Of a stretch of 64,000 nt of DNA, positions 660-38,008 are shown piece after piece. Under the pieces are notes generated by a model. That model was not told where the DNA came from and did not search any database. It was given only the letters and a program-made list of their open reading frames with translations. How positions within the stretch are numbered: the stretch's first letter is position 1; every line of letters starts with the position of its first letter. This stretch comes from a virus. The stretch lies in UHGV virus genome UHGV-1372088. One strand, 5' to 3'. Made by a program: the position numbers and the translations under genes.

Positions 660-775
660 TCTGCCCTTTGTGATATGTATGTGAATACCTACAAAACTAA
701 AAGGCGTCGCTTTGATGCCTTTGCAAAAACAATATAATTACTAAACAAGTTAATTACTAAATAAGAGGAGTACAC

Positions 776-11203: not shown

Positions 11204-11293
11204 ACTGCTTGATTGCCTTTCACTAGTAAATAAAATGTTTGCTAACTTACTAAACAAGATATTTCCTAACTTATTAAACAAGGTGTTTAAATA

Positions 11294-13438: not shown

Positions 13439-13517
13439 GCTCGAAATACCCCTCCTTCCCCAACGTGAAATTATTGTTTATGATAGGTATGTAAATACAT
13501 ATCATGGCGGGAAAAAA

Positions 13518-15007: not shown

Positions 15008-15495
15008 AAATGATTGCCGCCGTTGGGCGCGACTTTGAGATAGGCAAAAACAATGCGCTACCCTGGAAATGTCCGGCCGACTTGACCGTTTTTAAACAAC
15101 TGACTCTAGACCATACGGTCATTATGGGCGCGAATACCGCAAAAAGTCTGGGCCGCCCTCTTCCCGGCCGCCACAACATTGTGCTGACGCGCGATGCCAG
15201 TTCGCACATTGGCGATCTGGAAGGATTCGATACCGTTTCCTCAGCTAAAGAAGCCGCTCTCCTGTTTCCTGATGCGTGGGTTATCGGCGGTGCGCAAGTT
15301 TATGAGGCGATGCTTCCCTACGTCTCTGAGGTGTGGCTGTCCCACATCAGCGTTGAAACGAAAGCCCCGGATACCTTCTTCCCCGTCGACAAGATGATCG
15401 GGATGGGATTTAAGTTTTCGCATATCAGCTGTGAGCATATTGCTGAAAACGAAGGGTTGTCATTTAAACAAGTTGTTTACAAGGTTCCTAAATAA
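15004..15495 (+). CDS. folA: dihydrofolate reductase
   Basis: MIAAVGRDFEIGKNNALPW...VIMGANT...GRPLPGRHNIVLTR is collinear with E. coli DHFR motifs. Confidence 0.85.
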   Translation: MKMIAAVGRDFEIGKNNALPWKCPADLTVFKQLTLDHTVIMGANTAKSLGRPLPGRHNIVLTRDASSHIGDLEGFDTVSSAKEAALLFPDAWVIGGAQVYEAMLPYVSEVWLSHISVETKAPDTFFPVDKMIGMGFKFSHISCEHIAENEGLSFKQVVYKVPK

Positions 15496-16589: not shown

Positions 16590-17152
16590 TTACCGGTATC
16601 GACATCGAAACAACCGGTCTGGACTTTCGCAGTGGGCATAAGATCATTGAGATTGCCTTCTCCATGTACGATCTGAATACCCAGAAGAAGGTCGATGAGC
16701 TGGCGATGCGCTTTAACCCTCGCCGAAACATTGATGCCAAGGCCCAGGCGGTTCACAAGATTTCTCTCGATATGCTGGCCGGCTGCCCACTGTTTGAGGA
16801 TGAGGGTCAGGAGCTGATTGACCGCTTCGTTAGCAAAGCGGGTTTGCTGGTGGCGCACAACGGCGAATCGTTCGATATTCCGTTCATGAAGTATGAGCTG
16901 GCGCAATACGGCATCCATGTGCCGGACGTTCCTCTGATCGACACCATGCTCGACGGTCTATGGGCATGTGAGGACGGTAAGCGTCCGCGTCTGGAAGAGC
17001 TGGCATTCTCGTTAGGCTTTGTCTATGACCACAGTCAGTCGCACGGGGCGCTGTACGATACCGATCTCATGATGCAATGCTTCTTCAGGGCGCGTGAGAA
17101 GTATAATCTGTTCCCACTGCCGGCCTCTCTGTCGGCGGCAGCCGCCGCGTAA
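16583..17152 (+). CDS. DEDDh 3'-5' exonuclease (DnaQ/epsilon-like)
   Basis: Exo I GIDIETTG. Exo II LVAHNGESFDIPF. Exo III HGALYDTDL. Confidence 0.7.
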   Translation: MLVTGIDIETTGLDFRSGHKIIEIAFSMYDLNTQKKVDELAMRFNPRRNIDAKAQAVHKISLDMLAGCPLFEDEGQELIDRFVSKAGLLVAHNGESFDIPFMKYELAQYGIHVPDVPLIDTMLDGLWACEDGKRPRLEELAFSLGFVYDHSQSHGALYDTDLMMQCFFRAREKYNLFPLPASLSAAAAA

Positions 17153-17168
17153 ACAAGGAAACAAGGAA

Positions 17169-17203
17169 ACAAGATGTTTAGAGCGCCTTTAAACATCTTG
17201 TTT
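17169..17203. promoter_or_regulatory. extended palindromic operator (AACAAGATGTTTA / TAAACATCTTGTT), a class-A variant, upstream of the 17289 gene
   Basis: 13-bp perfect inverted repeat arms, preceded by (AAACAAGG)x3 direct repeats at 17151-17175. Confidence 0.5.
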
Positions 17204-17288
17204 GCCTAACAAGTCAGCTTTATCGCCTACCCACCACTGTCATAATCATCTCATCGAAAACGAAACTAATTAAAACGAGGATTCAGTC

Positions 17289-18086
17289 ATGACTATGACC
17301 GCACATGTAAACGACGACACCAATGATCTGCTGGCTATGCTGAACGAGCTTGAGACGCTGAGCGACCCGACTCCGTCTTCCGAAGCTAAGCCGGCCACCA
17401 CTGACCTGCTTGATGGTCTGGACCTGGACCTGTCCACCGAGGAACTCCTGTCCGACATGGACGCCATCTCTGCGGCGGTAGATGATGAGCTGGTTGCTGA
17501 AGCCGCGCTATCTGAAATTGAGAGCGCCGAAGTCATCGAAGCGTCACCTAAGAGTGATTACGTTGTCGATATTGAAGCGGAGAAAGTTAAGGCTGAAGCA
17601 GCAGCCGCCAAGGAAAAGAAGCCGAAAGTCAGCAAGCCAAAGGCACTCAGTGCGCCGCGCGAGAAGAAGGAACGCCCGGTCGCCGCTCGCAAGCGATTCG
17701 CAGTCGGCGAAATGACGGATGAGCAGTATGAGTCTGTCGGGATCTTCCGCGAGACGTTCGAAGAGGCGCTGGGGGTCGCGCCAGTGAAAGCGGCAGACAA
17801 AATCGTCAATCTTCTGGCGTGGTACTTCAACGACGTGACCTTGAGCGTATACACCGAGATTTGCTTGCGCAAAATCTGCGAGAGCAAACAGGCGAAAGTG
17901 GCTGAAATGCGCCTGGCCATGATGAGCAATCCATCTAAGCCGTATCCAGTCAGCACGGCAGGATCGCAGGCTGGCCAGATGCTGGCGGTATTCCCGGCGC
18001 TCAACATTGCGGAAAAGCAGGAGCCTGGCGTACTGGTCCTGAATGAAGATTCTCCGATTGTCGCTAAATTCAAAGCGACGATGTAA
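17289..18086 (+). CDS. hypothetical acidic protein with Lys/Ala-rich central segment (265 aa)
   Basis: Highly acidic N-terminus followed by a KEKKPKVSKPK basic stretch. Function unknown. Confidence 0.45.
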   Translation: MTMTAHVNDDTNDLLAMLNELETLSDPTPSSEAKPATTDLLDGLDLDLSTEELLSDMDAISAAVDDELVAEAALSEIESAEVIEASPKSDYVVDIEAEKVKAEAAAAKEKKPKVSKPKALSAPREKKERPVAARKRFAVGEMTDEQYESVGIFRETFEEALGVAPVKAADKIVNLLAWYFNDVTLSVYTEICLRKICESKQAKVAEMRLAMMSNPSKPYPVSTAGSQAGQMLAVFPALNIAEKQEPGVLVLNEDSPIVAKFKATM

Positions 18087-18140: not shown

Positions 18141-18320
18141 TCCATCCAGATAATCTCCCCACGAACCAACACAAAGCCATCAGGGTGAGTCCTGTCGCTC
18201 TCGGAGCGCATCGGCGCCCACTGTCTTCACGAGCTGTATCATTTGAATGCCTTTCATTGTTTGGTAAACTATGAAACAAGCAAACAAGTAAACAAGTAAA
18301 TTACGAAATAAGGGCGTTAA

Positions 18321-18545: not shown

Positions 18546-19122
18546 TCTCAGTTTGTAATGTATGTAGATGTTTACTTACCTACCACAGTCACGATAAAAT
18601 ACACATGCCCACCATCTGGTGGGTTAACTGTGAACCACAATCGTAAAAATCCCTTAGAGCAGTACGGGCAGGCAAAACGCAGACGGAGCGGTAGAAGTAT
18701 CTCCACTGTTCACAGTTATCAATATGACACTTAGATCTCGGGTGAAGAGACGGTCGGTTTAAGTGGCGCAGTAAGAAGCGGATCTCCATATGGGGTGAAG
18801 TGGGAAGCCCAGACGGGACTACGCTTAGGGCAAATTTGTTGGACATGTCAGGTAAAACTGGCGAGCGACGCAATGCGTAAAACGGTTTTGATTCGGGAAC
18901 AGTATCAAGCGGATCAACACTGGATGGAAGTCGCTCACTTGATTGCCGTGGCTGACGCCATAATCGCTTTTCTTCAAGAGTGATTATGAGGTCCGCCTGG
19001 CCACTCAAGGAGGTCGGTCAAATAACTTAGTTTGAGCTTTGATGGTTCAGTTGGAACCTAGCTTTGACGGTTATTTGCCTAGGAACTCCTTGGCCATAGG
19101 AACCCAAAAACCTTAAAACCTT

Positions 19123-19176: not shown

Positions 19177-19199
19177 AAGGCCCAAGTCTCGCCCAGAAT

Positions 19200-19420
19200 T
19201 TAAAACCCAAAAACCAAGGTCAAAGTCAAAACCAGCCCCTTCGGGGAAAGCGCTCAGGCTTCGCCATCGCGCTTTGAAAAAAGGTGATCTGGGATGGTTG
19301 ATAAAGTCAAAACCCAAAGTCAAAACCCAAAGTCAAAACCAGCCCCTTCGGGGCAAGCACTCCGGCTCTGCCGTCGCGCTTAATTCAAAGATCATATCTG
19401 GGATGGTTGATAATCAATCG
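19200..19420 (+). ncRNA. two roughly 110-bp paralogous structured units (candidate small RNAs or regulatory elements)
   Basis: Each unit has AAAACCCAAAGTCAAAACC repeats, a CCCC-TTCG-GGGG hairpin (UUCG tetraloop on the + strand), a second AAAGCGC...GCGCTT stem, and a conserved ATCTGGGATGGTTGATAA tail. The two units are about 80-85% identical. Confidence 0.35.
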
Positions 19421-19456
19421 CCAGACCTCTCCTTCCTTCCTTCCGGCACATTTTAA

Positions 19457-19476
19457 ATATGTATTTACATACATAT
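19457..19476. promoter_or_regulatory. class-B inverted repeat ATATGTATTTACATACATAT
   Basis: Same motif family as at 8784, 13487, 41560, 43457 and 53056. Confidence 0.5.
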
Positions 19477-20093: not shown

Positions 20094-20136
20094 TGAAAGT
20101 CAGGAAACAACGAAACAACTTGTTTAATAAATAACG

Positions 20137-20745: not shown

Positions 20746-20762
20746 GTAAACAACTTGTTTAC
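20746..20762. promoter_or_regulatory. class-A palindromic operator GTAAACAACTTGTTTAC
   Basis: Perfect 8-bp inverted arms around a single central base. Other copies at 21721, 24093, 26554, 27533 and 29142. Confidence 0.6.
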
Positions 20763-20783
20763 TGCCTGCTCAAGTTTGCCAAA

Positions 20784-21242
20784 ATGACCACATCGAAACG
20801 AACAAATGAGAGAGAAGTTATGTGCCGTAAATGTGAAGAAAACAAAGCCAAAGTTTTAGAACGCGCTGATGAGATTGCCGATTTCGCAGTCCTCTTTGCC
20901 GGTGGGACTAAGTCCAATCAGGATTTCGCGCGTCTTATCGTTGGCTCAGAAGCGCTTCACGAAGGTGGGTATCTCAGTCCGTCCAACTTGCTGCTTCTGG
21001 TCGCCCACTACTACAGCAAGCTGAAGACGGTTTCCGCTGACAACCAGGCGCTGCGTGAAGCGATGGATATTCTGGCTAACAATGGTGGTGATGACTCTAT
21101 TCAAAAAGCCATTCAGCCTAAAGATGCTCTGCACCTGGTTGAATCTATCGTCAATACGTTCGAAGCCGCTCAGGTTCGAGCTATGGAAGGGGCCAACGCC
21201 CAGATCCGAGAGCTGAAGAACCGCTACGGATTGAACAAATAG
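20784..21242 (+). CDS. hypothetical protein (152 aa; true start may be the Met at 20820)
   Basis: No recognisable motif beyond a Cys-x2-Cys pair (CRKCEENK). Confidence 0.4.
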   Translation: MTTSKRTNEREVMCRKCEENKAKVLERADEIADFAVLFAGGTKSNQDFARLIVGSEALHEGGYLSPSNLLLLVAHYYSKLKTVSADNQALREAMDILANNGGDDSIQKAIQPKDALHLVESIVNTFEAAQVRAMEGANAQIRELKNRYGLNK

Positions 21243-21273
21243 CTATTCAAAAAGCTATTCAAACACCCATTCA

Positions 21274-21300
21274 ACGCAGCCATTAGGCTGCGTTTTTATT
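21274..21300 (+). terminator. rho-independent terminator
   Basis: ACGCAGCC-ATTA-GGCTGCGT followed by TTTTTATT. Confidence 0.65.
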
Positions 21301-21311
21301 CAGGTGGAAAT

Positions 21312-21692
21312 ATGCGCAAAGTTGAATGTCCATACTGCCTCAAGTTAGCTGATCTCGTTACCGGTGAGCGAATTTACCCACATCGGGCAGACCTACACAG
21401 TCTTCAATTTTACCTTTGCTCTGACTGCAACGCCTACGTCGGATGTCATAAGAGAAGCAACGGCGCACCATTGGGCCGCCTGGCCAATGCAGAGTTAAGA
21501 GCCGCCAAAAACAAGGCTCACTTCTTTTTTGACCGTATCTGGAAGCTGCGACACAAATCCCGTTCGGCGGCATATCAGTGGCTATCCAAAGAGCTGGGTA
21601 TACCGGCTAAGGATTGTCATATCGGCATGTTCGATATCGTGCTCTGCAACAGGACTGCTGCGATATGCAGCAACTACCTTTCGAACAAGTAA
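21312..21692 (+). CDS. zinc-ribbon protein (126 aa)
   Basis: CPYC...(26 aa)...CSDCNAYVGCH, a four-Cys zinc-ribbon arrangement. Confidence 0.45.
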   Translation: MRKVECPYCLKLADLVTGERIYPHRADLHSLQFYLCSDCNAYVGCHKRSNGAPLGRLANAELRAAKNKAHFFFDRIWKLRHKSRSAAYQWLSKELGIPAKDCHIGMFDIVLCNRTAAICSNYLSNK

Positions 21693-21720
21693 CGCAGAAA
21701 ACAACCAAACAAGGAACGCC

Positions 21721-21762
21721 GTAAACAACTTGTTTACTGCCTTCCTTGTTATTGGATAATGT
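21721..21762. promoter_or_regulatory. class-A operator/promoter: GTAAACAACTTGTTTAC...TTGGATAATG
   Basis: Palindrome overlapping a -35-like TTGTTT, with an extended -10 (TGgGATAAT family) about 19 bp downstream. The ATG of the 21792 gene lies 30 bp further on. Confidence 0.55.
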
Positions 21763-21791
21763 CTGCAACGGAAACTATTTAGGAATCAGCT

Positions 21792-23465
21792 ATGTCAACC
21801 GCAGTGTCAATACTCGAAAGCTCCGCCGGCGCCGTTGATTTCCGCAAGGAAATGAACGTCATCCATGACATCGTGGCAGAGTGTGAAAAAGAGATCGCCC
21901 TGATGAACCAGGTGCATGATTTCGTTTATTCACACGACCGCGTGTCGATGATCAACCGGCTCCAGGTACTGAGTCGCCGGCCAAATGATGAGAACCTCCG
22001 AAACGTCCACCAGCTTAACGCCGTCAATCTGGACTTCGTTAAGCAAAACATCTGGGCCGAATACTGGAGCAAGGTGACGGATATGACTGGCGCACTTCTC
22101 ATCATGCCGGCTGAACGCCGCGACCAGTGGCGCAGCCAGTTCACGTTAGGCGTTCAAAAGATGGCGAAGAGAGATCGCGGTGGATTCGAGCGCCAGGTGG
22201 AAGAGTTCGTCGGTGTTCCTGAGTTCACGGCTGACACAGTGATTCCTACCATGACCACGCTGCTAAATGACCGCCACAAATATCTGGCCGAGCGCGTCTA
22301 TGGTCTGTTTAAGGCATTAAGCCCAACGCACAAAACCAACAAAACATACGGCTTCAGCGAGAAGCTGATCATCTCCTACTGCGTGACCGACTTCTGGAAT
22401 AGCAGCATTAGCCTGAACTACCGCAAAGCGGACGTGATCGACGACCTGCGCGTCATGCTGCACTTCTTTGCACATAAGGAGTTCATCACCCTTAATAGTT
22501 GCTCTGAGATGCTCTCGGCGGCTTACAGAGCGCATAACTGCGAAACCGGTCAGTGGATGAATGTCGACGGCAACTTAATGCGTGTGAAGATTTTCAAAAA
22601 CGGCAATGCCCATTTTGAAATCCACCCGGATGTCGCGTGGAAGCTGAATGAAGTGCTGGCGCACAGTATGCCGGCCGCCATCCCGGCGCCGTGCCGGAAG
22701 GCGCCAACAACCAAGGCTCCGAAAGAGTTTGGCTACATCCAGAAAACGGTTTCGACGAGAACGCGAACGCTGATCCGCGACCGCCGACACAGTGGGGCCG
22801 ACGAACTTTTCTATTTCCCGGACTCGCATCTTCAGAAGGCTGAGATTCAGGACCTGGAGCGCACGTTGAGATTTATCGGCGGCGTGAAGATTAGAGGCAG
22901 CTGGAAGTTTCCATATGAGTGCGCCGCAACGCTCGATAGCATTGTGAGCCTGGGTGTCATTCCAGAGGTGAAGTCGCACCAGTTTTACCCAACGCCTGAG
23001 CCAATAGCGAAATACGTTTCGCAGATCCTGAAGTGCCAGCCCACCGACCAGATTCTTGACCCGGATGCTGGGCGGGGTGATCTGGTGGCGTTCCTCGATG
23101 TGCCGGAGGAAAACATAACGAGCGTGGAGATATCCCCGCTGTTCTGCGAGATTCTGGGCGCCAAGGGGTACAACGTCTACAACAAGGACTTTCTGGCCTG
23201 GTCGAAGGAGTTCGCCACCGCCCCTGGCTACGACAAGATAGCGATCAACCCGCCTTACTCAGAGGGCCGTGCCAAAGAGCATACGCTGGCGGCGCTGACC
23301 CATCTCAATGAAAAAGGAATTATGGTCGCAGTCCTGCCAGCCGGCTACAAACCGGAAGAGTGGATCGGCAATGAGTTCGTTTGTGCCAAATCAGGTCGTG
23401 ACTTCGCCAACGAGTTCGAGGACACCGGCATCACGGTAGCAGTATTCGTTTTCAAAAGAGCATAG
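21792..23465 (+). CDS. fusion protein: roughly 390-aa N-terminal domain of unknown function plus C-terminal gamma-type N6-adenine methyltransferase domain
   Basis: Motif X FYPTPEPIA, motif I ILDPDAGRGDL and motif IV INPPYS occur in that order (X-I-IV) within the last roughly 165 aa. Confidence 0.65.
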   Translation: MSTAVSILESSAGAVDFRKEMNVIHDIVAECEKEIALMNQVHDFVYSHDRVSMINRLQVLSRRPNDENLRNVHQLNAVNLDFVKQNIWAEYWSKVTDMTGALLIMPAERRDQWRSQFTLGVQKMAKRDRGGFERQVEEFVGVPEFTADTVIPTMTTLLNDRHKYLAERVYGLFKALSPTHKTNKTYGFSEKLIISYCVTDFWNSSISLNYRKADVIDDLRVMLHFFAHKEFITLNSCSEMLSAAYRAHNCETGQWMNVDGNLMRVKIFKNGNAHFEIHPDVAWKLNEVLAHSMPAAIPAPCRKAPTTKAPKEFGYIQKTVSTRTRTLIRDRRHSGADELFYFPDSHLQKAEIQDLERTLRFIGGVKIRGSWKFPYECAATLDSIVSLGVIPEVKSHQFYPTPEPIAKYVSQILKCQPTDQILDPDAGRGDLVAFLDVPEENITSVEISPLFCEILGAKGYNVYNKDFLAWSKEFATAPGYDKIAINPPYSEGRAKEHTLAALTHLNEKGIMVAVLPAGYKPEEWIGNEFVCAKSGRDFANEFEDTGITVAVFVFKRA

Positions 23466-23473
23466 AGGCGCAG

Positions 23474-23662
23474 ATGATTGAGTTAACGCTGAAGGAGTAC
23501 AACGCAATCCACACAGACTATCGGGGCGTATGGTCAACGGAGCGAACCGACTGGCCCGATTGGGAAAGCGTGAGAGAGCTATATATGGGCAAGCGAACCA
23601 TAATGAAGCACGGTAGTCTATTGATCGAAGGACTTCATTTTCAAATTAAAGAAGCGCCTTAA
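23474..23662 (+). CDS. hypothetical protein (62 aa)
   Basis: Short ORF directly after the MTase gene. Confidence 0.3.
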   Translation: MIELTLKEYNAIHTDYRGVWSTERTDWPDWESVRELYMGKRTIMKHGSLLIEGLHFQIKEAP

Positions 23663-23726
23663 ACAAATTGTTTTCTCCCTTTTCTGGTTTGTGACAATAA
23701 CGCCAACCAGAAAAGGAGAACCCCAG

Positions 23727-23960
23727 ATGACCCCTTCAAACACATATCTAACAGTCAGTCTGACAGGCACGAAGGAAGTCGCCCCAAACGACCTGGCGGC
23801 ACTTTATCGAGACTGGACGAACAATTATCTGTCCGTCGCCCGGTTCGCTGAGGATTACGGCGTCAGCGTCGCCCAGGCGGAAGTTACTATTGCAATGGGC
23901 CGTGCGGTCCACGATGCCCACGCCAACTGGCTTAAAGAGTTCGTTCGGTCCGCAGACTGA
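23727..23960 (+). CDS. hypothetical protein (77 aa)
   Basis: SD AAGGAG 8 nt before the ATG at 23727. Confidence 0.35.
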   Translation: MTPSNTYLTVSLTGTKEVAPNDLAALYRDWTNNYLSVARFAEDYGVSVAQAEVTIAMGRAVHDAHANWLKEFVRSAD

Positions 23961-24044
23961 AGCGAAAGGAAAAGTGGGGATCGATGCAATAGCGATCGCC
24001 CACCATAATTGGTACTATTCAATAACATACAACCGTCTAAAATC

Positions 24045-24070
24045 GCCGCCCGTTGAGGCGGCTTTTTGTT
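24045..24070 (+). terminator. rho-independent terminator
   Basis: GCCGCC-CGTTGA-GGCGGC followed by TTTTTGTT. Confidence 0.65.
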
Positions 24071-24167
24071 GCCTGTATTAGCCAGTCGTGCCGTAAACAA
24101 CTTGTTTAGTGCCTGTCTGGTTTTGAGAAAATGACTTCATTGAGACAATAGCAGCAAGGAAATAGAA

Positions 24168-24518
24168 ATGGAAATGAGCGAACAAAAGTCAGTAGAGAAG
24201 CGCAAGGTGAAAGCTGGCTGGTGGGTGGCGCTGGGACTGGCTGTCGCACTGCCAGTTGTCGCGGCCACCAAGTTGAGCATTTTTGTTGTGGCCCCTATCG
24301 GCGCCATGCCGGAAGGCAAGACGGTGATTATGTGGAAGTCTGGCCAGGTGGATATGAACTTCATCGAGAGCCCAGAGGGTATGTGTTTATCAAAACGCAG
24401 CTTCAGCGCCTGGTGCAGCTTAGGTGCGATGAATGTTGCGGTGGCTGGAAACAAGATCCTCATGCGTCTGCCGTATAGCGCAACCCTTTACAACGCTTCA
24501 GTCCGCAACCGTCTCTAA
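24168..24518 (+). CDS. membrane-anchored protein (116 aa) with one N-terminal TM helix
   Basis: Hydrophobic segment WWVALGLAVALPVVAA after a basic N-terminus. A class-A operator lies upstream at 24093. Confidence 0.4.
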   Translation: MEMSEQKSVEKRKVKAGWWVALGLAVALPVVAATKLSIFVVAPIGAMPEGKTVIMWKSGQVDMNFIESPEGMCLSKRSFSAWCSLGAMNVAVAGNKILMRLPYSATLYNASVRNRL

Positions 24519-24539
24519 CAACATCACTCTGGGAATATT

Positions 24540-24971
24540 ATGAAACGTATCTCCGCCGCATTACTGGCCACCACACTTCTCTCGGCTTGCGCAGAGCAGC
24601 CCGTTCAGTCCGTAGTAAGTGCGGCAACGCAGAAGACGAACGCCATGCGATACCCAGTATGCGAGTTCTATTCGAAAGACACAGGCTTCTTGCACACAGA
24701 TGCCTACGTTATCGATTATGGTGATTCGTTTGCCGTAATTTACGGAGAGGGTGAGGATAAAATACTGCGCAGCTTTAGAATACAGTCGGACGGGATAAAT
24801 TCGGATCTGACTGATCGCAATTCTATCTTCTCCAGATATGTGTCCGAGTACGACAGCAACATAATGACCTTTGACATTTACACAGTAAAAGATAAGCGCT
24901 TCGTTAGCCTGGACTGTGACAGAGACAAAGCGTACCCGGTGGCGGCGAAACCGTTCACCCCAATCAAATAA
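24540..24971 (+). CDS. lipoprotein (143 aa)
   Basis: Signal peptide with lipobox LLSAC (MKRISAALLATTLLSAC). Confidence 0.55.
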   Translation: MKRISAALLATTLLSACAEQPVQSVVSAATQKTNAMRYPVCEFYSKDTGFLHTDAYVIDYGDSFAVIYGEGEDKILRSFRIQSDGINSDLTDRNSIFSRYVSEYDSNIMTFDIYTVKDKRFVSLDCDRDKAYPVAAKPFTPIK

Positions 24972-25004
24972 CGTTTGACTTTACCTTGACCAAACAGATC
25001 AACT

Positions 25005-26560
25005 TACCCCGTAATCTATAAGAGTGAGTTGATCTGACAATCAAAACCCACCCAAACCCCTCGAATACCAGACGCAGCAAGCCTTCCAGCCAATTTTCAC
25101 CCATCAGACCTGCCATCTAAGACACGTCAATAAAAAGTCAAAGGGAATAGTAAAATCGACCCCAAAAATTGACTTTTATGACCCGCCAGTCTTATACCCG
25201 CCAAATCCACCACAGAACAGCCACCAGAAGAGAGTTACGATTCAACCCACGCAATCATGCAGCCCAAAAAGGGAAGCGCCCAAAACGCATTACAGAGCGT
25301 TTCACGGACCCACACCCAGAGAGAAGAATCGACCCAAGAGAGAACCAACAACCAAAAAAGACAAAACCTTCCATGATAGCCTATATCCCAATACCTGAAC
25401 ACAACCCACCGGAAGAACACACCCCACAAAATTCACAAGCCACCCCGCCAGACACCACCCACATCCCAGAGGCGACATGCCAATACACACCACCCAAACT
25501 CCCCAAGGCAAACACCACCCAACATTACCCAGGCCACAGAACACCACCCAAACTCCACAAGGCTACCGGCACCTGCCATTACCCACACCTCAGATTCCCA
25601 TTATTGAGGAAACCAGCAATACCAAGGCCCAGAGAGCAATTACCAAGGAAACAACATAATTGGAACGCAAGGAAACAACCAAACAACTAAGTCACTAAAC
25701 ATCACCACACGCCATTACCCAAACAACAAGGAAAACGAACGAACAAAGCCAGCCCTACATGCCATTACCCACACCCCAACGAAAGAAAACACCCAAGAGA
25801 GAACAACACAGAAACACCATAGAGAAACGATAAAGGAATCACAGATAAGGACCGCCCAATAAAAAGAACCAACACAGACAGACCAGAAGAGAAGGGCAGA
25901 GAGGAAGAAAGAGAAGGGCCGGAAGAAAAGACCGTATGGGAGGAAAGAAAGAGCCGTAGAGAAAGCGATAGATGGAAAGCCGTATAGAAAGGGAAAGGCT
26001 GGAAGGGGAGACAGAAGGGGAGAGAAAGGAACGACCTGAAGGAACGACCGGAAGAAAGGAAGTGTAAGAGGGTCGGAAGAAAAGGGCCGCGCCACGCTTT
26101 CCGTATAAATTACACGGCCAGGTTTCCCCTCCCTACCATCCGCCCCGACGGCCCACCATCCACACGGTCAGCCGTAGCCCATCCCTTCCGGTCCCGTCGG
26201 TCGCACCACTCCCTGTCCCGTCGGTCAGGTCCGGCCCGGAACCGCATTTCGGGAACGGGTGGAAGGTCGGTTATGGAAACGGCGAGAAACGGCCAGCTTT
26301 GCCTTCACCGAGAAACGGCTGGCTTTCGGTATATACCGCATCGGTCCGCCGGCCGGTTGTCGGTCAGGAAGAACCAGGCGGCTGCGCGGCGCCAGGACGG
26401 GAGTGTCCGTCGGGAAGTGGTCGGGACGTCCGTTGGCTGCCAGCGAACGAAGACCACCAGCATACGGATGTTCTGTCGGGGGACAACGTGGAACATTCGG
26501 TCTAAGCCGTCGGCGCGTGGGGAGACGTTCGGACCGTCGGGACCAGTGGTGCCGTAAACA
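25005..26560. other. non-coding tract of extreme strand asymmetry: C+A-rich and T-poor (about 25.0-25.85 kb), then polypurine and GGA-rich (25.85-26.10 kb), then GC-rich with GTCGG and GAAACGG repeats (26.10-26.56 kb)
   Basis: Composition read directly. Only low-complexity ORFs are present. Internal repeats include CACCACCCAAACTCC x2 and CCATTACCCACACC x3. Confidence 0.8.
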
Positions 26561-26594
26561 TCTTGTTTCCTGCCTGTCCAGTCCTGGGATAATG
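26554..26594. promoter_or_regulatory. class-A operator/promoter: GTAAACATCTTGTTTCC...TGGGATAATG
   Basis: Same architecture as the copies at 21721, 27533 and 29142. The ATG lies about 31 bp downstream. Confidence 0.55.
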
Positions 26595-26625
26595 GGTCTA
26601 CACCAACAAGAACGGAGTAAAGCAC

Positions 26626-26844
26626 ATGTACAAGCATTTAAATATCAGCATTACGCTATCGGACAATAGCATGACCCTTCGCAACGATGAGGCGCTAGGC
26701 AATTTGATTCGCTCGGCAGAAGTTATTACCAAGGTGTCAGATATGTTGGCTAAAGGCCACTGCTCCGGTGCCTTTGGGGTGCCTGTGGGGACTGAGAGTT
26801 TTGAACTAGCCTGGAACTGCTCTGTTTCTGAGTCGATTGTATAG
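26626..26844 (+). CDS. hypothetical protein (72 aa)
   Basis: First gene after the class-A promoter. Confidence 0.4.
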   Translation: MYKHLNISITLSDNSMTLRNDEALGNLIRSAEVITKVSDMLAKGHCSGAFGVPVGTESFELAWNCSVSESIV

Positions 26845-26852
26845 GGGGAGAT

Positions 26853-27065
26853 ATGAGCGTCCAAATGCCTGATTTATTGAATTACTGGACCGTCGATTCT
26901 GTCGCCGAGTGTATCGACGGCGTGGGCCAGGAACTGTCCCGTAAGCTGTGGTCATTCGTCACAGCAGATCATTCGCCGCTGGGCAAAGTGGCCTGGGAAA
27001 CGTTTACCGATGAAGAGAAGGCGGAGCTCGCCGCCGCTATCGCTAAAGAGTTCCCGGAGGAATGA
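26853..27065 (+). CDS. hypothetical acidic protein (70 aa)
   Basis: SD GGGGGAG before the ATG. Followed, with a 4-bp overlap, by a 123-aa ORF. Confidence 0.4.
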   Translation: MSVQMPDLLNYWTVDSVAECIDGVGQELSRKLWSFVTADHSPLGKVAWETFTDEEKAELAAAIAKEFPEE

Positions 27066-27433
27066 TGGGACTGACTACCAAGCCTCTGCTGGAGCCAACG
27101 AAGGCGTTGATGGGCGGCTGTAATGATTTACGGCTGGTCTTCCCATACGAGGGGAATCTCACGGCGGAGAAGAAGACGGAGATGGCCCGTAAGTTGTGCA
27201 GCTGGTGGAACAGTGACGCCGGTTGGGAGACGCTGAAGAAGAACGGTCGCTTTAGAACGGACATTCGCCTTGATATGGCTAACAGCCTTGGCTTCTTCGA
27301 TCGCTTCTGTGGTCGGTACAAGTCTGTCGAGGCGAAGACAGTGGTTCTGACGACCGGCGCGGAGATGGTGAGTTATGCCGGTGATAACTGCGGTGGGAGT
27401 ATTGAGCCGCACAACTTCGTGATCATCAAGTAA
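27062..27433 (+). CDS. hypothetical protein (123 aa)
   Basis: ATGA-coupled to the upstream gene, an arrangement seen in antitoxin/toxin pairs. Confidence 0.4.
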   Translation: MMGLTTKPLLEPTKALMGGCNDLRLVFPYEGNLTAEKKTEMARKLCSWWNSDAGWETLKKNGRFRTDIRLDMANSLGFFDRFCGRYKSVEAKTVVLTTGAEMVSYAGDNCGGSIEPHNFVIIK

Positions 27434-27532
27434 GCCCCGCCACCAGCAACGGTGGCTTTCTTCCATCCGCTGCCGTCGGCGCCCATAACGTCCCAAACAC
27501 CTTGTTTCCAGCCTCTCCTATTTCCTTGCGCC

Positions 27533-27573
27533 TTAAACAAGTTGTTTCCTGCCTCTCTTGTTCTGGGATAATG
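27533..27573. promoter_or_regulatory. class-A operator/promoter: TTAAACAAGTTGTTTCC...TGGGATAATG
   Basis: Directly read. A degenerate half copy lies at 27490-27510. Confidence 0.55.
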
Positions 27574-27602
27574 GCTTTACACCAACAAAGAGAGAGATAC
27601 AC

Positions 27603-27962
27603 ATGGAACGCTTCCACTACTTCACCACTCGCAACGCGGAAAAGACTTCTTTCACTGCGATCATCACCACGCCTGTCGATGGCCAGAACGAGTTTTACGT
27701 CGCCCACGACTTGTCTAACGTGCTGGCGATGGTCAACACGTATGGGGAAGGAGATTTCGGAACTATCCGCGTACACAATGCGGAGAAGCTCGCCCTGGTG
27801 GACTTTGACACCAGCATCGACTATCTGGCCAAAGACGCTGTGCGCATGTCAAAAGAGTACGACAATGGCGCCTCTGGTGACTTCGCTTTCAAGATGTCGG
27901 ACGACGCTCGTTTCGTTGAAGAAGAAGACGTGACTTTCTACATGGACCTGGATTCCATCTAA
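27603..27962 (+). CDS. hypothetical protein (120 aa), start moved to MERFHYF
   Basis: ATG positioned 30 bp after the extended -10, with SD GAGAGAGA. Confidence 0.4.
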   Translation: MERFHYFTTRNAEKTSFTAIITTPVDGQNEFYVAHDLSNVLAMVNTYGEGDFGTIRVHNAEKLALVDFDTSIDYLAKDAVRMSKEYDNGASGDFAFKMSDDARFVEEEDVTFYMDLDSI

Positions 27963-28154
27963 ACAAGGCGCTGGTGGACACCCACCAGCCTTTCCTTCCG
28001 CTCCCACGCCGACGGCCCAATGCATCCCATCCTTCCCTTCGGGGTGATGATAAGTATCCATTTACCTACACAAAACGCTATTGTGCCTGCCCAGCGCTGG
28101 TAATATACATCCCATCGAGAGAAGAGACTCTCACCCAAACAGAGGAACGAAACG

Positions 28155-28448
28155 ATGGCCAACATCTCTTTTATGCGTAAGCTGGAGCAACATGCTCGAC
28201 ACGATCGCGCTGGCTTCAGGATGAAGGGAAAGGAAGTCCTGCTTGCCATGTCAGTGAATGACTTCGCCATCGAAATGTTCCGTGAAACGCTCGTTGATCA
28301 GCTTGGTGAATCCAGACAGCGCCTGGTTGTAGAGCAACGCTCCCGCATCTCTGACGTGGGTTACAAGACAGTGCAACGTCTGTTCCCCAATGACCAACTG
28401 ACCGCAGCACACAACGCTGTGACCGCTTTAATGGCGACGCATCACTAG
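28155..28448 (+). CDS. hypothetical protein (97 aa)
   Basis: SD AGAGGAACGAAACG before the ATG. Confidence 0.4.
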   Translation: MANISFMRKLEQHARHDRAGFRMKGKEVLLAMSVNDFAIEMFRETLVDQLGESRQRLVVEQRSRISDVGYKTVQRLFPNDQLTAAHNAVTALMATHH

Positions 28449-28487
28449 TCGCTACTGAATAACCATGTGCTTTGCTGAATTTCCAGC

Positions 28488-28516
28488 AGCCCCGAAGAAA
28501 TGCGGGGCTTTTTTTA
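28488..28516 (+). terminator. rho-independent terminator
   Basis: AGCCCCG-AAGAAATG-CGGGGCT followed by TTTTTTT. Confidence 0.75.
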
Positions 28517-28572
28517 TTGTATGCATCAACATACAAGGTTAGTATTGTCGGGCTCAACAACATGGAGGATTT

Positions 28573-29007
28573 ATGAGCCTAACTCGTAACGATATGGTCT
28601 ATGACCTGTACTACGCTTCAAACACCGACCCAATGACCGCAGATCGCACCGCCACGCTGACCATTCAGCTGCGCGACGAAGCGGGAGCCACCAAACTGAC
28701 CACCCAGCTGTCCCGTACCATCGTCCGTGCGACCAAAGCGAAAGTCTACGCCGTAGGGCAGCAGATGATCGTTGCCGGCGATGACGCTCTGCTGGTGGCC
28801 ACCGAAGCATACCTGCGTAAAGATACCGCCAGTCTGACCGAAGATCTGATTTCCAAGGTGATGGACTTCATCGAGGGGAATATGGGCGCAGGAAGCACCT
28901 GGATGGGCGTCTACGGGATGAAAATCTTCTCAGGCGAACAACTTTCCGCACTGCTGCCGGCCAGCGTCCTGGATACCGACGGCACTGCGACCAAAGCCAC
29001 CGCTTAA
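28573..29007 (+). CDS. hypothetical protein (144 aa)
   Basis: SD GGAGGA before the ATG. Followed by a terminator at 29028. Confidence 0.45.
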   Translation: MSLTRNDMVYDLYYASNTDPMTADRTATLTIQLRDEAGATKLTTQLSRTIVRATKAKVYAVGQQMIVAGDDALLVATEAYLRKDTASLTEDLISKVMDFIEGNMGAGSTWMGVYGMKIFSGEQLSALLPASVLDTDGTATKATA

Positions 29008-29027
29008 TAGCCGTTAAGCAACCTGCC

Positions 29028-29056
29028 AAAGCCACGCAAGCCGTGGCTTTTTTCTT
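29028..29056 (+). terminator. rho-independent terminator
   Basis: AAAGCCACG-CAAG-CCGTGGCTTT followed by TTTTCTT. Confidence 0.7.
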
Positions 29057-29141
29057 GACACCATCCAGATACCCTCCGGCTACCGCCAGGCAAAATACCA
29101 CCCAAATCGCCTCCGGCACCGCGCACCTTGTTCATAACGCC

Positions 29142-29181
29142 GTAAACAACTTGTTTCCTGCCTATCTCAGTCTGGGATAAT
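29142..29181. promoter_or_regulatory. class-A operator/promoter: GTAAACAACTTGTTTCC...TGGGATAATC
   Basis: Directly read. Confidence 0.55.
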
Positions 29182-29218: not shown

Positions 29219-29497
29219 ATGCACATGAATCTCGTAAACCAAATCATCTCCCCGCTCGTCAGCTTCTTCGACCTTCCAGCTGCGGAACAAGCCGACTTCG
29301 ACTTTATCGAAGAAAGCGATCGCTCGTCACAAGCCTTCTTCCTGTATCAAGACAGCCACTGGTATGTGGGCGACTTCCTTAAAGACTCCGCACCGGAAGG
29401 ATGGGACGCCGCGATGGGAACTTCTGCTTTCTCCGCCGTGGTTATCAAGCTCACCGATGACTTCGAAGGCGTCCACGTCGCAACCGCTCTTAACTGA
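29219..29497 (+). CDS. hypothetical acidic protein (92 aa)
   Basis: Follows a class-A promoter. Confidence 0.4.
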   Translation: MHMNLVNQIISPLVSFFDLPAAEQADFDFIEESDRSSQAFFLYQDSHWYVGDFLKDSAPEGWDAAMGTSAFSAVVIKLTDDFEGVHVATALN

Positions 29498-29718: not shown

Positions 29719-30225
29719 AGAACGAGCCACCGCTTCTGGTGGCCTAAATCACATCCGCCGCAGGGACGGTCCGGTAAAACGGTCAGGGTTCGCCGTAGGG
29801 GATCGCCCAGGAAACGGCTGAAGAAACGGGAGCACGGTTTTTTCGGGAAACGGCTGGCTTTTTACATGTACCGGGCGGCTAATCGTCGGTGGGGTGGTGC
29901 CGCTCTTGCGTCGGGAGGGGCGTCGGGAGCTTGGTCGCCGCTTGGGGGTGAGATAGCGGACCTCCATCCAGATGGCTGGAAAAATGCTTCGACTGCTAAT
30001 CAATCGCAGATCATTGGCGAGCGGATACAGTATCACGGATCGCCACGCTGTAAACCATGCCCGGAGAATAAGAGACGACGATAAAACGCAATATGAGCCA
30101 TTCTAAGCGCGTCAATTGCATGAGTGTTACCAGTGTATGGCGTGTCTCTTTTAAAGCGCTTACAGTCGATTCTATGCGTTATTTTGCATGGCAATTCTGC
30201 GATATCTGGCATATCGTTTACGCCA

Positions 30226-30251
30226 ACAAAAAAGCGCCCAATTGTGGGCGC
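30226..30251 (-). terminator. rho-independent terminator for minus-strand transcription
   Basis: Perfect hairpin GCGCCCA-ATTG-TGGGCGC preceded on the + strand by AAAAAA (a T-run on the minus strand). A near-identical copy lies at 30309-30331. Confidence 0.7.
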
Positions 30252-30308
30252 TGTGTGACGTTGTGAACGTGGGAATGTTGGGACGTGGAGCGATGGAAGC
30301 CAGAAACG

Positions 30309-30331
30309 AAAAAAGCGCCCATAGTGGGCGC
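30309..30331 (-). terminator. rho-independent terminator for minus-strand transcription (second tandem copy)
   Basis: GCGCCCA-TAG-TGGGCGC with a flanking A-run on the + strand. Confidence 0.7.
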
Positions 30332-30349
30332 TGAATTGCTTGTCTGTGG

Positions 30350-30544
30350 TTAGCTGTTTATCAGCTTGCCCATTATGTTGCACAACGTCATATAGCGTTT
30401 TTTCTTCTCAGTTAGATACCCATCGCAACAATCAAAGAAAGTTAAATTCATTGAATCCGCTTCATTCTTTAAAACGTCGTAAAGCTCTTTTTTAAACTCG
30501 TTATATTTGGCGCGACGTTCTGAAAGATATTTTTGTTTAGTCAT
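30350..30544 (-). CDS. hypothetical small Cys-containing protein (64 aa) in a low-GC island
   Basis: AT-rich codon usage unlike the rest of the window. Contains FFDCCDGY. Confidence 0.35.
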   Translation of the reverse strand: MTKQKYLSERRAKYNEFKKELYDVLKNEADSMNLTFFDCCDGYLTEKKKRYMTLCNIMGKLINS

Positions 30545-31280: not shown

Positions 31281-31642
31281 TATTTAATTCCTTATTTAAG
31301 TGTATCGCAATTGATACTGTTTTTTTTGTTTTCGCCATCGTTCTGGCTTGAGATAAGAATATGCTCAAGTGATGAAACTGGCAAGCGTTTTTTTAAAAAA
31401 AAAGAAAATAATTTTGTCTATATAGAAAATGAAAGTCTTAGGTTTTTTGCGTCATACTAGGAAGGTGTAGGTTTAATAAATTCCCTTCCGGTAGGTTGAC
31501 CCTTATATATTTAATATATTCCGCTCGGCCGCTCGTTAATATATTCCGCTCGGTAGCTCAGACAAATAAAAAGCGGCGAGAGTGACCATGAAAAATACCG
31601 ACCGCTCTTACCGCTCACACCCCTTATACTTTCGCTGGACGG

Positions 31643-32146
31643 TTAACCAACCACCTCGATGCTCGTCACCCAATCGAAGAACACTTCAACCTTGCCTTCC
31701 ATACCATTTAGGTTGTCCAACCCGACTGACCATCTGTTCAACCCGGCGACCCGCCCGGCATACTGGCGACCGGTGACGGTTGTGACCCTTATAGTTTGCT
31801 CGGCTAGTCCGGCCGCCTTACATACTTCGAAGTAGTCTGCCGATGGGGTAGGGTGTGGCGGCTGCTCCGATATCTTAATCGCCACCCTGCCTTCTGGGAG
31901 TACACTACGTTCCACAAAATGCCGACTCTCGATGGCGACAATATTAGTCACTGACGTGATATATCTACGTCCATCAAAGTCACCAAGATTTCCAATCTCA
32001 ACCTTGCCTGGGGCTCTCTTTAAATTGAGAATGTTATGAATCAACTCCTGACCTGACGCGAAATTAATCTGACACGGTCGCTTACTGTTTTTAAAGAAGG
32101 CGAGGTTGTCCATCACTTCGTCTATATATTCTTTGGTTAGTGACAT
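31643..32146 (-). CDS. hypothetical protein (167 aa)
   Basis: Last gene of the minus-strand helicase operon. Confidence 0.45.
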   Translation of the reverse strand: MSLTKEYIDEVMDNLAFFKNSKRPCQINFASGQELIHNILNLKRAPGKVEIGNLGDFDGRRYITSVTNIVAIESRHFVERSVLPEGRVAIKISEQPPHPTPSADYFEVCKAAGLAEQTIRVTTVTGRQYAGRVAGLNRWSVGLDNLNGMEGKVEVFFDWVTSIEVVG

Positions 32147-32238: not shown

Positions 32239-32520
32239 TTAGTCCAAATCATCCGGTTCGTACATCGACTCGATATCGGCAATCGTCAGACTGGACGACT
32301 TGATCAACTCAAGCCTTCGTTGTCTTCGCGCTCTCTCGATGCGAACACTGTTAACGGCTTTAGCCATATCCTCGGCGGTCATACACTCCAGAAGGAAGTT
32401 GAGCGTCTGCGCCTTACTCATAGATAGTCCGTTCTCGGCAAGGCTCGCTCGTATTTTTTCCAGTCTGGCGTTTGCTTGCTGTGAAAGCTTTACCTGACAG
32501 GCTATTGGTTTGTCCGACAT
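32239..32520 (-). CDS. hypothetical protein (93 aa), possible small DNA-binding protein
   Basis: Its start codon abuts the helicase stop (translational coupling). Basic C-terminal stretch RIERARRQRRLE. Confidence 0.4.
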   Translation of the reverse strand: MSDKPIACQVKLSQQANARLEKIRASLAENGLSMSKAQTLNFLLECMTAEDMAKAVNSVRIERARRQRRLELIKSSSLTIADIESMYEPDDLD

Positions 32521-37611: not shown

Positions 37612-37878
37612 ATGACCTTAACCGACAAACAAAAAGACATTATCAGAACACTGAGCTTGGGCCACGAAAGAGACGAGTTGCTTGATCTGGATGAGTTGCT
37701 TGAGTTGCTGCCCTACACAACAACCAAACAGAGCATTCAGTTTTCGATTCGTATCCTGATTAAGAAAGGTCTGGTCGAGAAGCATGGCATCCGTCAACGC
37801 GCGACGGACGGCCGCCAGCGTCGAGTTTTGGGGTTGACGGCTATCGGCCGAGCGAAAGTGAAGTTGATGCGGATCTAA
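37612..37878 (+). CDS. small winged-helix (MarR-like) DNA-binding protein (88 aa)
   Basis: IRILIKKGLVEKHG...GRQRRVLGLT looks like a recognition helix plus wing. Confidence 0.4.
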   Translation: MTLTDKQKDIIRTLSLGHERDELLDLDELLELLPYTTTKQSIQFSIRILIKKGLVEKHGIRQRATDGRQRRVLGLTAIGRAKVKLMRI

Positions 37879-38008
37879 CGTCGAACACCCCTATATGTTT
37901 TAAAGGATCTTAAAAGAAAGTTATTAAATATATACAGAGCTAGGTCTTTTTTATCGCGAAAACAGGATGTTTTAGGCGTAAAGGAACCATAAGGCTAAGG
38001 ATGGCAAG

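Follow-up and report, generated by a model that had tools for sequence, protein, structure and literature searches.

The stretch of DNA analysed here (hereafter the window) comprises 64,000 nucleotides of the UHGV virus genome UHGV-1372088 and is part of a Klebsiella phage-plasmid of the SSU5/pHCM2 type, about 110 kb in size. Its closest match is the Klebsiella pneumoniae plasmid LR890700.1 (99.1% identity), while CP110757.1 and CP056499.1 are about 98.5% identical to it; these three plasmids are 104-112 kb long. The terminase/portal region shares 76% DNA identity with Salmonella phage SSU5, thus placing the element in the SSU5/pHCM2 supergroup of phage-plasmids. The gene content was deduced from an annotated relative and from Pfam and PHROG scans of the window proteins. 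The + strand between 3.4 and 30.3 kb encodes, among others, the RepB initiator, sbcCD-like proteins, nrdAB, thymidylate synthase and dihydrofolate reductase (DHFR), together with many small open reading frames (ORFs); the replication gene set of the element is T4-like. A short - strand block at 30.3-34.1 kb bears a helicase gene and genes for three or four small proteins, and beyond it the + strand resumes with ParB_N, terminase, portal, capsid and tape measure genes. Dispersed over this layout is a 17-bp palindrome, GTAAACAACTTGTTTAC, whose sites and proposed role as an operator are described here.

With up to three mismatches allowed, GTAAACAACTTGTTTAC gave 22 strand-matches at 14 distinct positions, vs. 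0.10 expected from shuffled sequences. All six copies listed by the first-pass annotation of this DNA were recovered, with no mismatch (20746 and 21721), one (24093 and 29142) or two (26554 and 27533). Further copies were found at 23659, 15464, 20111, 11274 (with 11226 and 11250), 18288 and 741, and a variant at 37958. The sites are strongly concentrated between genes: 16 of the 20 sites with at most two mismatches to AAACAANTTGTTT are intergenic (17 of 20 with a revised gene call at 741), in a sequence that is 13.9% intergenic (binomial p = 5e-11). At three sites the TAA of the motif is the stop codon of the preceding gene (23659-23662, 26554-26557 and 17150-17152), an overlap of operator and coding sequence. 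A long-arm variant had been described at 17169-17203; the motif is indeed there, but instead of one long palindrome the segment holds two mutually inverted 17-mers (17165 and 17189), 24 bp apart. The half-site direct repeats noticed earlier were borne out by Tandem Repeats Finder, with an 8-bp period at 17151-17173, 18274-18300 and 20104-20119 and a 24-bp repeat at 11227-11282. The half-site AAACAA[CG] is strand-biased, with 44 occurrences on the + strand vs. 14 on the - strand.

Seven sites (20746, 21721, 23659, 24093, 26554, 27533 and 29142; class A) belong to a promoter module made up of gcc, the 17-mer, tgcct, 9 nt, a TGnGATAAT-like extended -10 element, an A/C-rich leader of 25-40 nt ('catcgaaaacgaaac' or 'acaccaacaa'), a Shine-Dalgarno (SD) sequence and ATG. 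The geometry is exact: at all seven, 14 nt separate the 17-mer from TGn and 17 nt separate it from the -10 hexamer, which replaces the gap of about 19 bp proposed previously. TGn is present in six of the seven, and the hexamers are GATAAT (four times), GACAAT, GAAAAT and CAAAAT. The 64 kb contain exactly three instances of TGGGATAAT, all of them behind a motif copy, and at 21721 the copy is followed by TTGGATAAT, just as the first-pass annotation had it; by itself, with one mismatch allowed, TGGGATAAT shows no enrichment (12 found vs. 9 expected). Agreement with TTGACA is poor at the -35 positions, and a standard promoter scan picked up only the one at 21733. For this reason, the class A promoters are regarded as extended -10 promoters: they possess the TGn and the TATAAT-like hexamer of sigma-70 promoters in which the -35 element is dispensable, and their transcription starts are predicted only. 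When the -10 hexamer is set at -12..-7, the class A 17-mer occupies -46..-30 relative to the predicted start, with its centre at about -38. Hairpins resembling intrinsic terminators precede three of the seven sites (24045, 27439 and 29028).

The comparison set consisted of 77 loci around homologues of the DUF4942 methylase-like gene, with 60-93% protein identity. Each locus contained 2-17 core matches, and nearly all contained 5-17, vs. about 0.9 in shuffles of one 21.7-kb locus (L007). The informative positions, taken over 153 non-redundant contexts, read G-W-AAACAA-N-TTGTTT-W-C around an uninformative centre, and the overall consensus of the 17-bp quasi-palindrome is G/T-W-AAACAA-N-TTGTTT-W-C. 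The canonical cassette comprises a terminator hairpin, an upstream site (O_up) ccTTAAACAAnTTGTTTTCtrcct, a spacer, TGnGATAAT, the 11-nt A/C-rich leader aacaccaacaa, a downstream site (O_down) aaGAAAACAAnTTGTTTAa, the SD sequence and ATG. O_down covers +6..+22 (centre about +14), and its reverse complement equals O_up over about 19 nt, so that two mirror images bracket the -10 element and the start. Among 122 non-redundant contexts, extended -10 hexamers lie only at offset -19 (26) or +32 (33) from the motif, and second motif copies lie only at +/-51 bp, i.e. about five helical turns, except for two stray matches (-50 and +37). The reverse search of the loci gave the same picture: 133 of 207 extended -10 matches on the + strand (64%) had the motif at the exact offset(s), vs. 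1 of 47 on the - strand.

For the same orthologous gene, some lineages keep both operators and some only O_down, while the lineage of the window keeps only O_up. SSU5 has about 22 motif copies with the consensus GAAAACAAnTTGTTTAn, mostly of the O_down type and exactly 11 nt after a GATAAT -10 element, with the SD sequence and ATG following. A complete close relative of the window has 27 sites, which, bar a few chance coding matches, lie in the early/accessory arm, before parA or before terS, and its structural gene block contains no motif site. Hardly any variation of the motif is seen among elements from Klebsiella, Salmonella, Escherichia, Enterobacter and Yersinia. In two more distant relatives, Moellerella wisconsensis pNX2019-MW3 and Pectobacterium carotovorum Drgb1, the gene order is preserved and the promoter cores (tgcct, extended -10, catcgaaac) can still be recognised; these elements show neither motif enrichment (19 vs. 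10.4 expected in Moellerella, 21 vs. 13.5 in Pectobacterium) nor any cassette-type copy. Judged by its positions and by these motif-less relatives, the motif flanks or overlaps the promoter core and is removable without loss of the promoter, as is typical of operators. Detachable and present on either side of the core, it shows the pattern expected of a repressor operator. The first-pass annotation had named recurrence in unrelated genomes as a sign of chance; in an exact-match scan of IMG/VR, multiple copies with the cassette context were found solely in SSU5-like contigs, and the matches in about 30 unrelated contigs of low GC content were scattered, one to three per contig, and lacked this context. 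The system is therefore group-specific. Taken together, the sequence comparisons fit a detachable regulatory add-on that would act on DNA and is neither a core promoter element nor an RNA element.

Table 1. Sites and genes discussed in the text, with positions in the window
Feature	Position	Strand	Description
Cassette 1	20746..20785	+	O_up GTAAACAACTTGTTTAC 20746-20762, 14 nt, TGcCAAAAT 20777-20785; gene 20820..21242
Cassette 2	21699..21760	+	two half-site octamers 21699-21714, O_up 21721-21737, TTGGATAAT 21752-21760; DUF4942 methylase-like gene 21792..23465
Cassette 3	23659..23698	+	O_up TTAAACAAATTGTTTTC and TGTGACAAT; gene 23727..23960
Cassette 4	24093..24132	+	terminator 24045-24062 ahead, O_up and TGAGAAAAT; genes 24168..24518 and 24540..24971
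Cassette 5	26554..26593	+	O_up GTAAACATCTTGTTTCC and TGGGATAAT; 26626..26844 and following genes
Cassette 6	27493..27572	+	terminator 27439-27456 ahead; weaker copy 27493-27509, O_up 27533-27549, TGGGATAAT 27564-27572; gene 27603..27962
Cassette 7	29142..29181	+	terminator 29028-29050 ahead, O_up and TGGGATAAT; gene 29225..29497
Start-covering site	733..757	+	TATAAT 733-738, 2 nt, CTAAACAAGTTAATTAC; gene 776..1075
nrdB-leader copies	11226..11290	+	three degenerate copies, 24-bp spacing, directly before nrdB (ATG 11294)
Site in DHFR gene end	15464..15480	+	TTAAACAAGTTGTTTAC in last codons, 14 nt before ATG 15495; no -10 at canonical offset
Half-site array and inverted 17-mers	17151..17246	+	AAACAAGG x3, 17-mers 17165-17181 and 17189-17205, TGTCATAAT 17238-17246; upstream of gene 17289..18086
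Half-site array	18274..18304	+	AAACAAG x3, 8-bp period, and degenerate inverted arm; 16 nt before ATG 18321
Array and palindrome	20104..20127	+	GAAACAAC x2 running into palindrome CGAAACAACTTGTTTAA; before TerB-like gene (ATG 20149)
terS-upstream variant	37958..37974	+	GAAAACAGGATGTTTTA, between gene of 88-aa winged helix-turn-helix protein and terS (38009)
Second palindrome, 18 bp	674-691, 4182-4199, 8785-8802, 13484-13501, 18561-18578, 19458-19475, 34153-34170, 39895-39912, 41561-41578, 43457-43474, 53057-53074		
p223, 223 aa	30609..31280	-	N-terminal helical region and C-terminal winged helix (predicted); phrog_1513
Predicted sigma-70 promoter of p223, motif-free	31356..31384	-	TTGCCA 31384-31379, 17 nt, TATTCT 31361-31356, A/T-rich tract upstream
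FljA-like protein	31643..32146	-	PF03614; fast-evolving
p93	32239..32520	-	ribbon-helix-helix by sequence pattern only
ParB_N proteins	34188 and 34870		Pfam
p88, small winged-helix protein	37612..37878	+	72% identical to SSU5_130

About half of the window sites do not lie on a -35 position; they stand directly ahead of ribosome-binding sites in operons, with no recognisable promoter. The class B sites (11274, 15464, 18288, 20111 and 17165) are located within operons, 14-25 nt ahead of start codons, often with one or two extra half-site octamers in front, and have no -10 element at either canonical offset. In the array upstream of the gene 17289..18086, TGTCATAAT lies 32 nt downstream of the second 17-mer. 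The site at 741 has TATAAT 2 nt upstream and therefore covers the predicted transcription start. The nrdB gene of SSU5 is likewise preceded by the motif, in two copies. One site stands upstream of the late terS operon, and SSU5 has two good copies at this position. The first-pass annotation had pictured a single dimeric repressor sitting on the -35 of each early promoter; a dispersed operator overlapping the -35 region with an exact -10 geometry is the best-supported reading, but the placement on the -35 applies to only about half of the sites.

Among the proteins that could bind these sites, p223 is the foremost candidate, although we rate its chance at somewhat less than even. It is also the best supported of the three candidates named by the first-pass annotation, having a winged-helix model and a recognition helix that is changed only in the motif-less relatives. 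Searches revealed no Pfam, NCBIfam or PDB relative of p223, and its family phrog_1513 is of unknown function. Its 107 clusters come almost exclusively from enterobacterial hosts, and many of them are on contigs that measure about 105-113 kb; the family is found on about 815 PLSDB plasmids including pMT1, and is restricted to SSU5-type elements. An AlphaFold2 model built with a 24-sequence alignment reached a predicted local distance difference test score (pLDDT) of 90 and a predicted TM-score of 0.83 (single-sequence pLDDT 41). In this model, a long N-terminal helical region is followed by the order helix-strand-helix-helix-wing-helix, and the C-terminal 80-100 residues, with the H1-S1-H2-H3-wing topology of known members, superpose on the winged helices of RosR, YgaV, PadR, CadC, MarR, TubR, RTP and LmrR. 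Fold searches with the full-length model gave only domain-level winged-helix matches, the N-terminal part matching generic helical bundles. In the predicted recognition helix (residues 175-186), T175, Q176, N178, Q179 and L180 do not vary between lineages whose p223 proteins otherwise share 43-55% identity; in the motif-less relatives, the p223 homologue has 32% identity and the helix reads GFTQTNQA, with F and A in place of Y174 and L180. The p223 gene is transcribed against the regulated genes from a predicted promoter with a proper -35 element, and the p223 promoter of SSU5, TTGATT...GATAAT, is motif-free like that of the window. Between the FljA-like gene and p223, the - strand contains two 25-nt direct repeats with the core GAGCGGAATATATTAA (31511-31559), and after them a non-coding block AAATATATAAGGGT...GGGAATTTATT...ACACCTTC (31440-31500) that is kept in SSU5; upstream of the p223 promoter, the segment 31440-31559 may thus represent a control region or encode a small RNA.

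The other small proteins of the region fared less well, and we consider it improbable that p93, p88 and the FljA-like protein, all three taken jointly, include the binder. The MarR-like p88 and the 93-aa p93 had both been proposed earlier. The recognition helix of p88 is kept in the motif-less relatives, so this protein probably recognises something else. Its target could perhaps be a conserved element before terS: GAGCTAGGTCT (37937-37947) lies upstream of terS after an A/T-rich sequence resembling TATAAATA (region 37920-37947), is present twice in the Moellerella relative, and may be a late promoter and a plausible target of this adjacent 88-aa winged-helix protein. In p93, the three strand residues predicted to face DNA vary among motif-bearing lineages (A-Q-K, H-Q-Q and S-H-K), which disfavours it; the motif-less relatives lack a homologue of p93, and no matches came from a PDB profile search. 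The FljA-like protein was rejected because it evolves too fast for an invariant motif, with about 25% identity between lineages and 83% to a plasmid otherwise 98.5% identical; the homologue search gave two matches only. The remainder of the probability, after p223, these three proteins and the partition protein discussed below, goes to a host or unrecognised factor.

Overall, we favour, with a probability of roughly 0.6, the reading that the 17-mer is a DNA operator on strong, -35-poor extended -10 promoters, through which an element-encoded binder, most likely p223, would repress the units jointly. We infer from the arrangement of the sites that one protein of the element would bind them as a dimer or a higher oligomer. 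At O_up, it would block the upstream edge of RNA polymerase on a promoter devoid of a good -35 element, and at O_down it would block polymerase binding or promoter escape; with both sites on the same face of the helix 51 bp apart, the complexes may bridge across the -10 element. The ancestral unit was presumably a self-contained cassette with a terminator and mirror-image O_up and O_down, and the terminators ahead of many cassettes would insulate each small gene set. Some 25 transcription units, made up of small genes for accessory functions, anti-defence and nucleotide metabolism, and the entry to the terS operon would thereby be held off and released together. The role of the class B sites, which stand alone, and of the octamer arrays may be that of roadblocks or of cooperative auxiliary or loading sites, which is the weakest part of the scheme. 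Expressed from its own promoter, p223 might serve as a maintenance repressor of the carrier state; silencing in the carrier state is favoured over a late shut-off of early genes because this promoter is on the opposite strand and motif-free.

Several observations weigh against this reading. The link between p223 and the motif rests on general plausibility and on one co-variation event, since the two relatives devoid of the motif come from a single clade. Tandem direct repetition of the half-site with an 8-bp period is more usual for ribbon-helix-helix (RHH) proteins than for winged-helix dimers, and only about 8 bp separate the centres of the half-sites. The sites at 15464, 18288, 20111 and 11274 have no recognisable promoter and are therefore not accounted for by simple promoter occlusion. 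In SSU5 and CP056499.1, the motif stands directly upstream of parA, a gene expected to be on in the carrier state. Finally, a second dispersed palindrome, described below, covers the main early and late operons, so that the 17-mer may not be the master lysogeny operator.

The half-site arrays and the parA copy bring in the alternative that survives best, namely that the operator role is the same and the binder is a ParG/omega-like centromere-binding protein of a type Ib partition system, phrog_5111, whose gene follows parA directly and lies outside the window (CP056499.1 1744..2184; SSU5_034). In that case the dispersed sites would double as a global silencing network and possibly as centromere-like sites, in the style of omega of inc18, KorB of RK2 or SopB of N15. 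Half-sites occur here both as inverted pairs and as 8-bp tandem direct arrays, and such a mixture of sub-sites is the style of ParG, MetJ and omega. Besides the motif copy directly upstream of parA in SSU5, there are 1.5 copies in the Klebsiella lineage; the partner shows a strand-helix-helix sequence pattern with an invariant putative DNA-contact strand, I(K/R)SRTxS(L/M), and its family is group-specific too. However, this strand is identical in both motif-less relatives, whose parA upstream regions share no motif-like site, and no centromere-typical repeat array lies beside parA. The RHH fold of the partner receives no support from Pfam, PDB or BLAST, and a BLAST comparison with a ParG sequence showed no similarity. 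Moreover, pMT1 has another ParAB system in place of this ParA/partner pair and still bears seven intact sites, a weak point since pMT1 is evolutionarily young. We consider the partition partner an unlikely binder, both as a candidate protein and as an explanation of the motif. AACAAG repeats upstream of the Moellerella parA are not shared by Pectobacterium and were taken as coincidental. In CP056499.1, the region beyond the window encodes the type Ib ParA with its small ParG-like partner phrog_5111 (L002 1744-2852), a T4 gp32-like single-strand DNA-binding protein labelled 'regulator' and an Acb2/Tad1-hairpin anti-defence protein (L003 3136-4098 and 15991-16236); the annotated 'regulator' of the relatives was discarded as a candidate, being this gp32-like protein.

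The fixed distance to the -10 element might also be read in the opposite sense, with the motif as an activator or promoter-specificity element at which a phage factor, T4 MotA-like or of class II, switches promoters on. The motif does stand in for a poor -35 at a constant distance, the element has a T4-like replication gene set, and TTGTTTAC bears a loose resemblance to a MotA box. This is nevertheless hard to reconcile with the 46 non-redundant promoters in which the motif is found solely downstream of the start, at +6..+22 (centre about +14), a position from which activators do not function. Near-consensus, TG-extended -10 elements should fire unaided, the motif-less relatives keep the same promoter cores, and the same gene may have the site at either position. 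We therefore consider activation quite unlikely.

About equally improbable is that an Enterobacteriaceae host transcription factor binds the motif, the element thereby reading a host signal. The near-invariance of the motif in the listed enterobacterial elements and its absence from relatives with Morganellaceae and Pectobacteriaceae hosts would agree with this, but we know of no E. coli or Salmonella consensus that fits: the TyrR, NadR, KdgR, PurR, Cra and CpxR boxes differ in spacing or orientation.

The location of many copies 10-25 nt upstream of start codons within transcripts suggests action in RNA, with the motif as a translational operator or processing site in the 5′ untranslated region and the FljA-like protein (31643..32146) or a T4 RegA-like protein as its binder. 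The half-sites are biased toward the coding strand, a Flag1_repress (PF03614) homologue is encoded nearby, and FljA blocks translation of the fliC mRNA (PMC2652032). The sequence data speak clearly against this. O_up copies lie upstream of the transcription start and are conserved equally well. The distance from the motif to ATG varies (10-19 nt) whereas that to the -10 element is fixed, and a translational operator should be placed relative to the SD sequence or AUG within the mRNA, yet half of the cassette sites are upstream of the start. In the six palindrome pairs (sites defined by the -10 distance), 87 pair-breaking single changes were counted vs. 1 compensatory double change, and the RNA hairpin energies of the motif are negligible, -0.7 to -3.7 kcal/mol. 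A structured RNA or intrinsic terminator was rejected on the same grounds of weak folding, no covariation and no Rfam family matched in a scan of the whole window; the true terminators are separate upstream hairpins. The FljA-like protein is only about 25% identical between lineages with the same motif, and no RegA-like Pfam match was found among the approximately 50 window proteins scanned. RNA-level action is thus very improbable. Least credible of all is a functionless palindrome carried along by repeated copying of one promoter cassette: the entire cassette is indeed repeated, including the non-palindromic gcc, tgcct and aacaccaacaa, but the palindrome is its best-conserved part across elements whose genes are only 60-75% identical, is retained as two mirror-image copies and found outside cassettes, and was lost as a unit in two relatives that kept the promoter core.

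The second dispersed palindrome of the element has the form TATGTA-N6-TACATA, with 11 sites in the window at up to one mismatch vs. 0.02 expected. Ten of the 11 are located between genes, and the one at 18561 overlaps the first codons of a small tentative ORF (18558..18734). The sites lie ahead of the sbcD-like gene, nrdA, thyA, the helicase/ParB divergent region and the late portal, capsid-region and tail genes. SSU5 (12 sites) and Moellerella (17 sites) have the same 18-bp palindrome at equivalent places in the form TA[A/G]GTA-N6-TAC[C/T]TA; in Pectobacterium, pMT1 and several viral loci, the pair types are mixed or too few to classify. Both arms have thus changed in concert in the lineage of the window, which is the signature of a dimeric protein with altered specificity, and the palindrome has the appearance of an operator of immunity type or of a promoter code. 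Candidate binders are p93 and the FljA-like protein, which evolves fast. Since it covers the main operons and persists in the motif-less Moellerella, the 17-mer is only one tier of control. The earlier view that one motif defines the early regulon is accordingly retained for the early and accessory promoters but not for the main replication and late operons, where the second palindrome would be in control, and one 17-mer site precedes the late terS. We tentatively propose, as a possibility well short of even odds, a two-tier circuit in which the 17-mer cassette is a portable cartridge that plugs acquired accessory and anti-defence genes into one switch run by p223, and the second palindrome forms a separate, immunity-like layer.

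The arrangement resembles several known systems in part. The analogy with the C1 operators of phage P1, drawn in the first-pass annotation, holds for dispersal and presumably for function, as P1 is a phage-plasmid with about 20-27 dispersed 17-bp operators over separate promoters; the complete close relative has 27 sites, and SSU5 about 22. It does not extend to the operator sequence: that of P1 is asymmetric (ATTGCTCTAATAAATTT) and bound by C1 monomers, whereas here it is a palindrome, often in a mirror-image pair and accompanied by 8-bp half-site arrays, and a second palindrome family coexists in the SSU5-type element. No C1-family repressor was detectable by Pfam, NCBIfam or PDB matches of any candidate, the P1 C1 sequence itself not having been compared. 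With omega of inc18 and ParG of TP228, the system shares 7-8 bp sub-sites, direct and inverted, at several plasmid promoters including the partition operon; contiguous sub-sites of this kind are present at 17151, 18274 and 20104, with inverted pairs elsewhere. In contrast to these systems, most sites here are single 17-bp palindromes at fixed promoter positions and not long arrays, and the RHH candidate is recognised by sequence pattern only. KorA/KorB of RK2 and SopB of N15 also have dispersed palindromic operators, some near -39/-40, and maintenance proteins that double as global repressors, but their binders are ParB-family proteins or the KorA helix-turn-helix protein, and the ParB_N proteins of the window have no link to the motif. 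As in gal (OE/OI), lac (O1/O2) and deo, the promoter core lies between two operators whose distance, 51 bp here, is a whole number of helical turns; the spacing is, however, much shorter, the two sites mirror each other exactly, and many promoters have retained just one or the other. Like lambdoid cI/Cro operators, the motif is a pseudo-palindrome of 17 bp, carries no information at its central base and overlaps promoter elements, but the lambdoid sites cluster in one or two control regions and differ between immunity types, while this motif is dispersed and nearly invariant.

Some further features of the window deserve mention. About 1.3 kb without a convincing ORF (24972-26272) is A/C-rich and G-poor on the + strand (AT skew 0.31), contains internal repeats 'gccattaccc' and a 29-nt unit repeated 2.9 times (25487-25563), has no Rfam match, and holds three AAACAAC half-sites (25649, 25673 and 25681). 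Another gene-poor region (18984-19276 and 19303-19340) consists of a 290-nt gene-free gap followed by the start of a small tentative ORF (19274..19456), with tandem arrays of AAAACCTT (x3.4, 19107-19133), GAAACGT (x5, 19142-19176) and AAAGTCAAAACCC (x2.9, 19303-19340); the arrays at 19107-19340 look like iterons or binding arrays and are not related to the 17-mer. The element 'TTCGGGAA(A)CGG' occurs at 29842-29853 and 26248-26258, at the end of the early arm, and in the Moellerella relative it forms four 33-bp tandem repeats (L203 43429-43540) about 0.57 kb downstream of the p223 homologue. Two near-identical terminator hairpins on the - strand (30233-30252 and 30314-30332; AGCGCCCAC-loop-GGGCGCT and a T run) lie in or beside the tentative - strand ORFs 30033..30383 and 30350..30544, downstream of p223, where - and + transcription converge.

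Literature searches on the regulation of SSU5 or pHCM2 and on the motif string, made in one searchable library, returned nothing relevant, and they yielded no description of how plasmid carriage and lytic growth of SSU5-type elements are controlled. The result presented here is a testable cis-regulatory code, with an exact operator, its positions, about 25 target units and a short list of binders. SSU5/pHCM2/pKpn-type phage-plasmids are common and can carry resistance genes, and about 800 PLSDB plasmids of Klebsiella, E. coli, Salmonella, Enterobacter and Y. pestis (pMT1) carry the candidate regulator. As a compact module of natural origin, the detachable twin-operator cassette would lend itself to the construction of tightly repressed promoters; it also illustrates how a mobile element can connect newly gained genes to a switch that is already in place. 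If true, the two-tier circuit would describe the control of a clinically widespread plasmid-prophage family that includes Klebsiella plasmids, pHCM2 of S. Typhi and pMT1 of Y. pestis.

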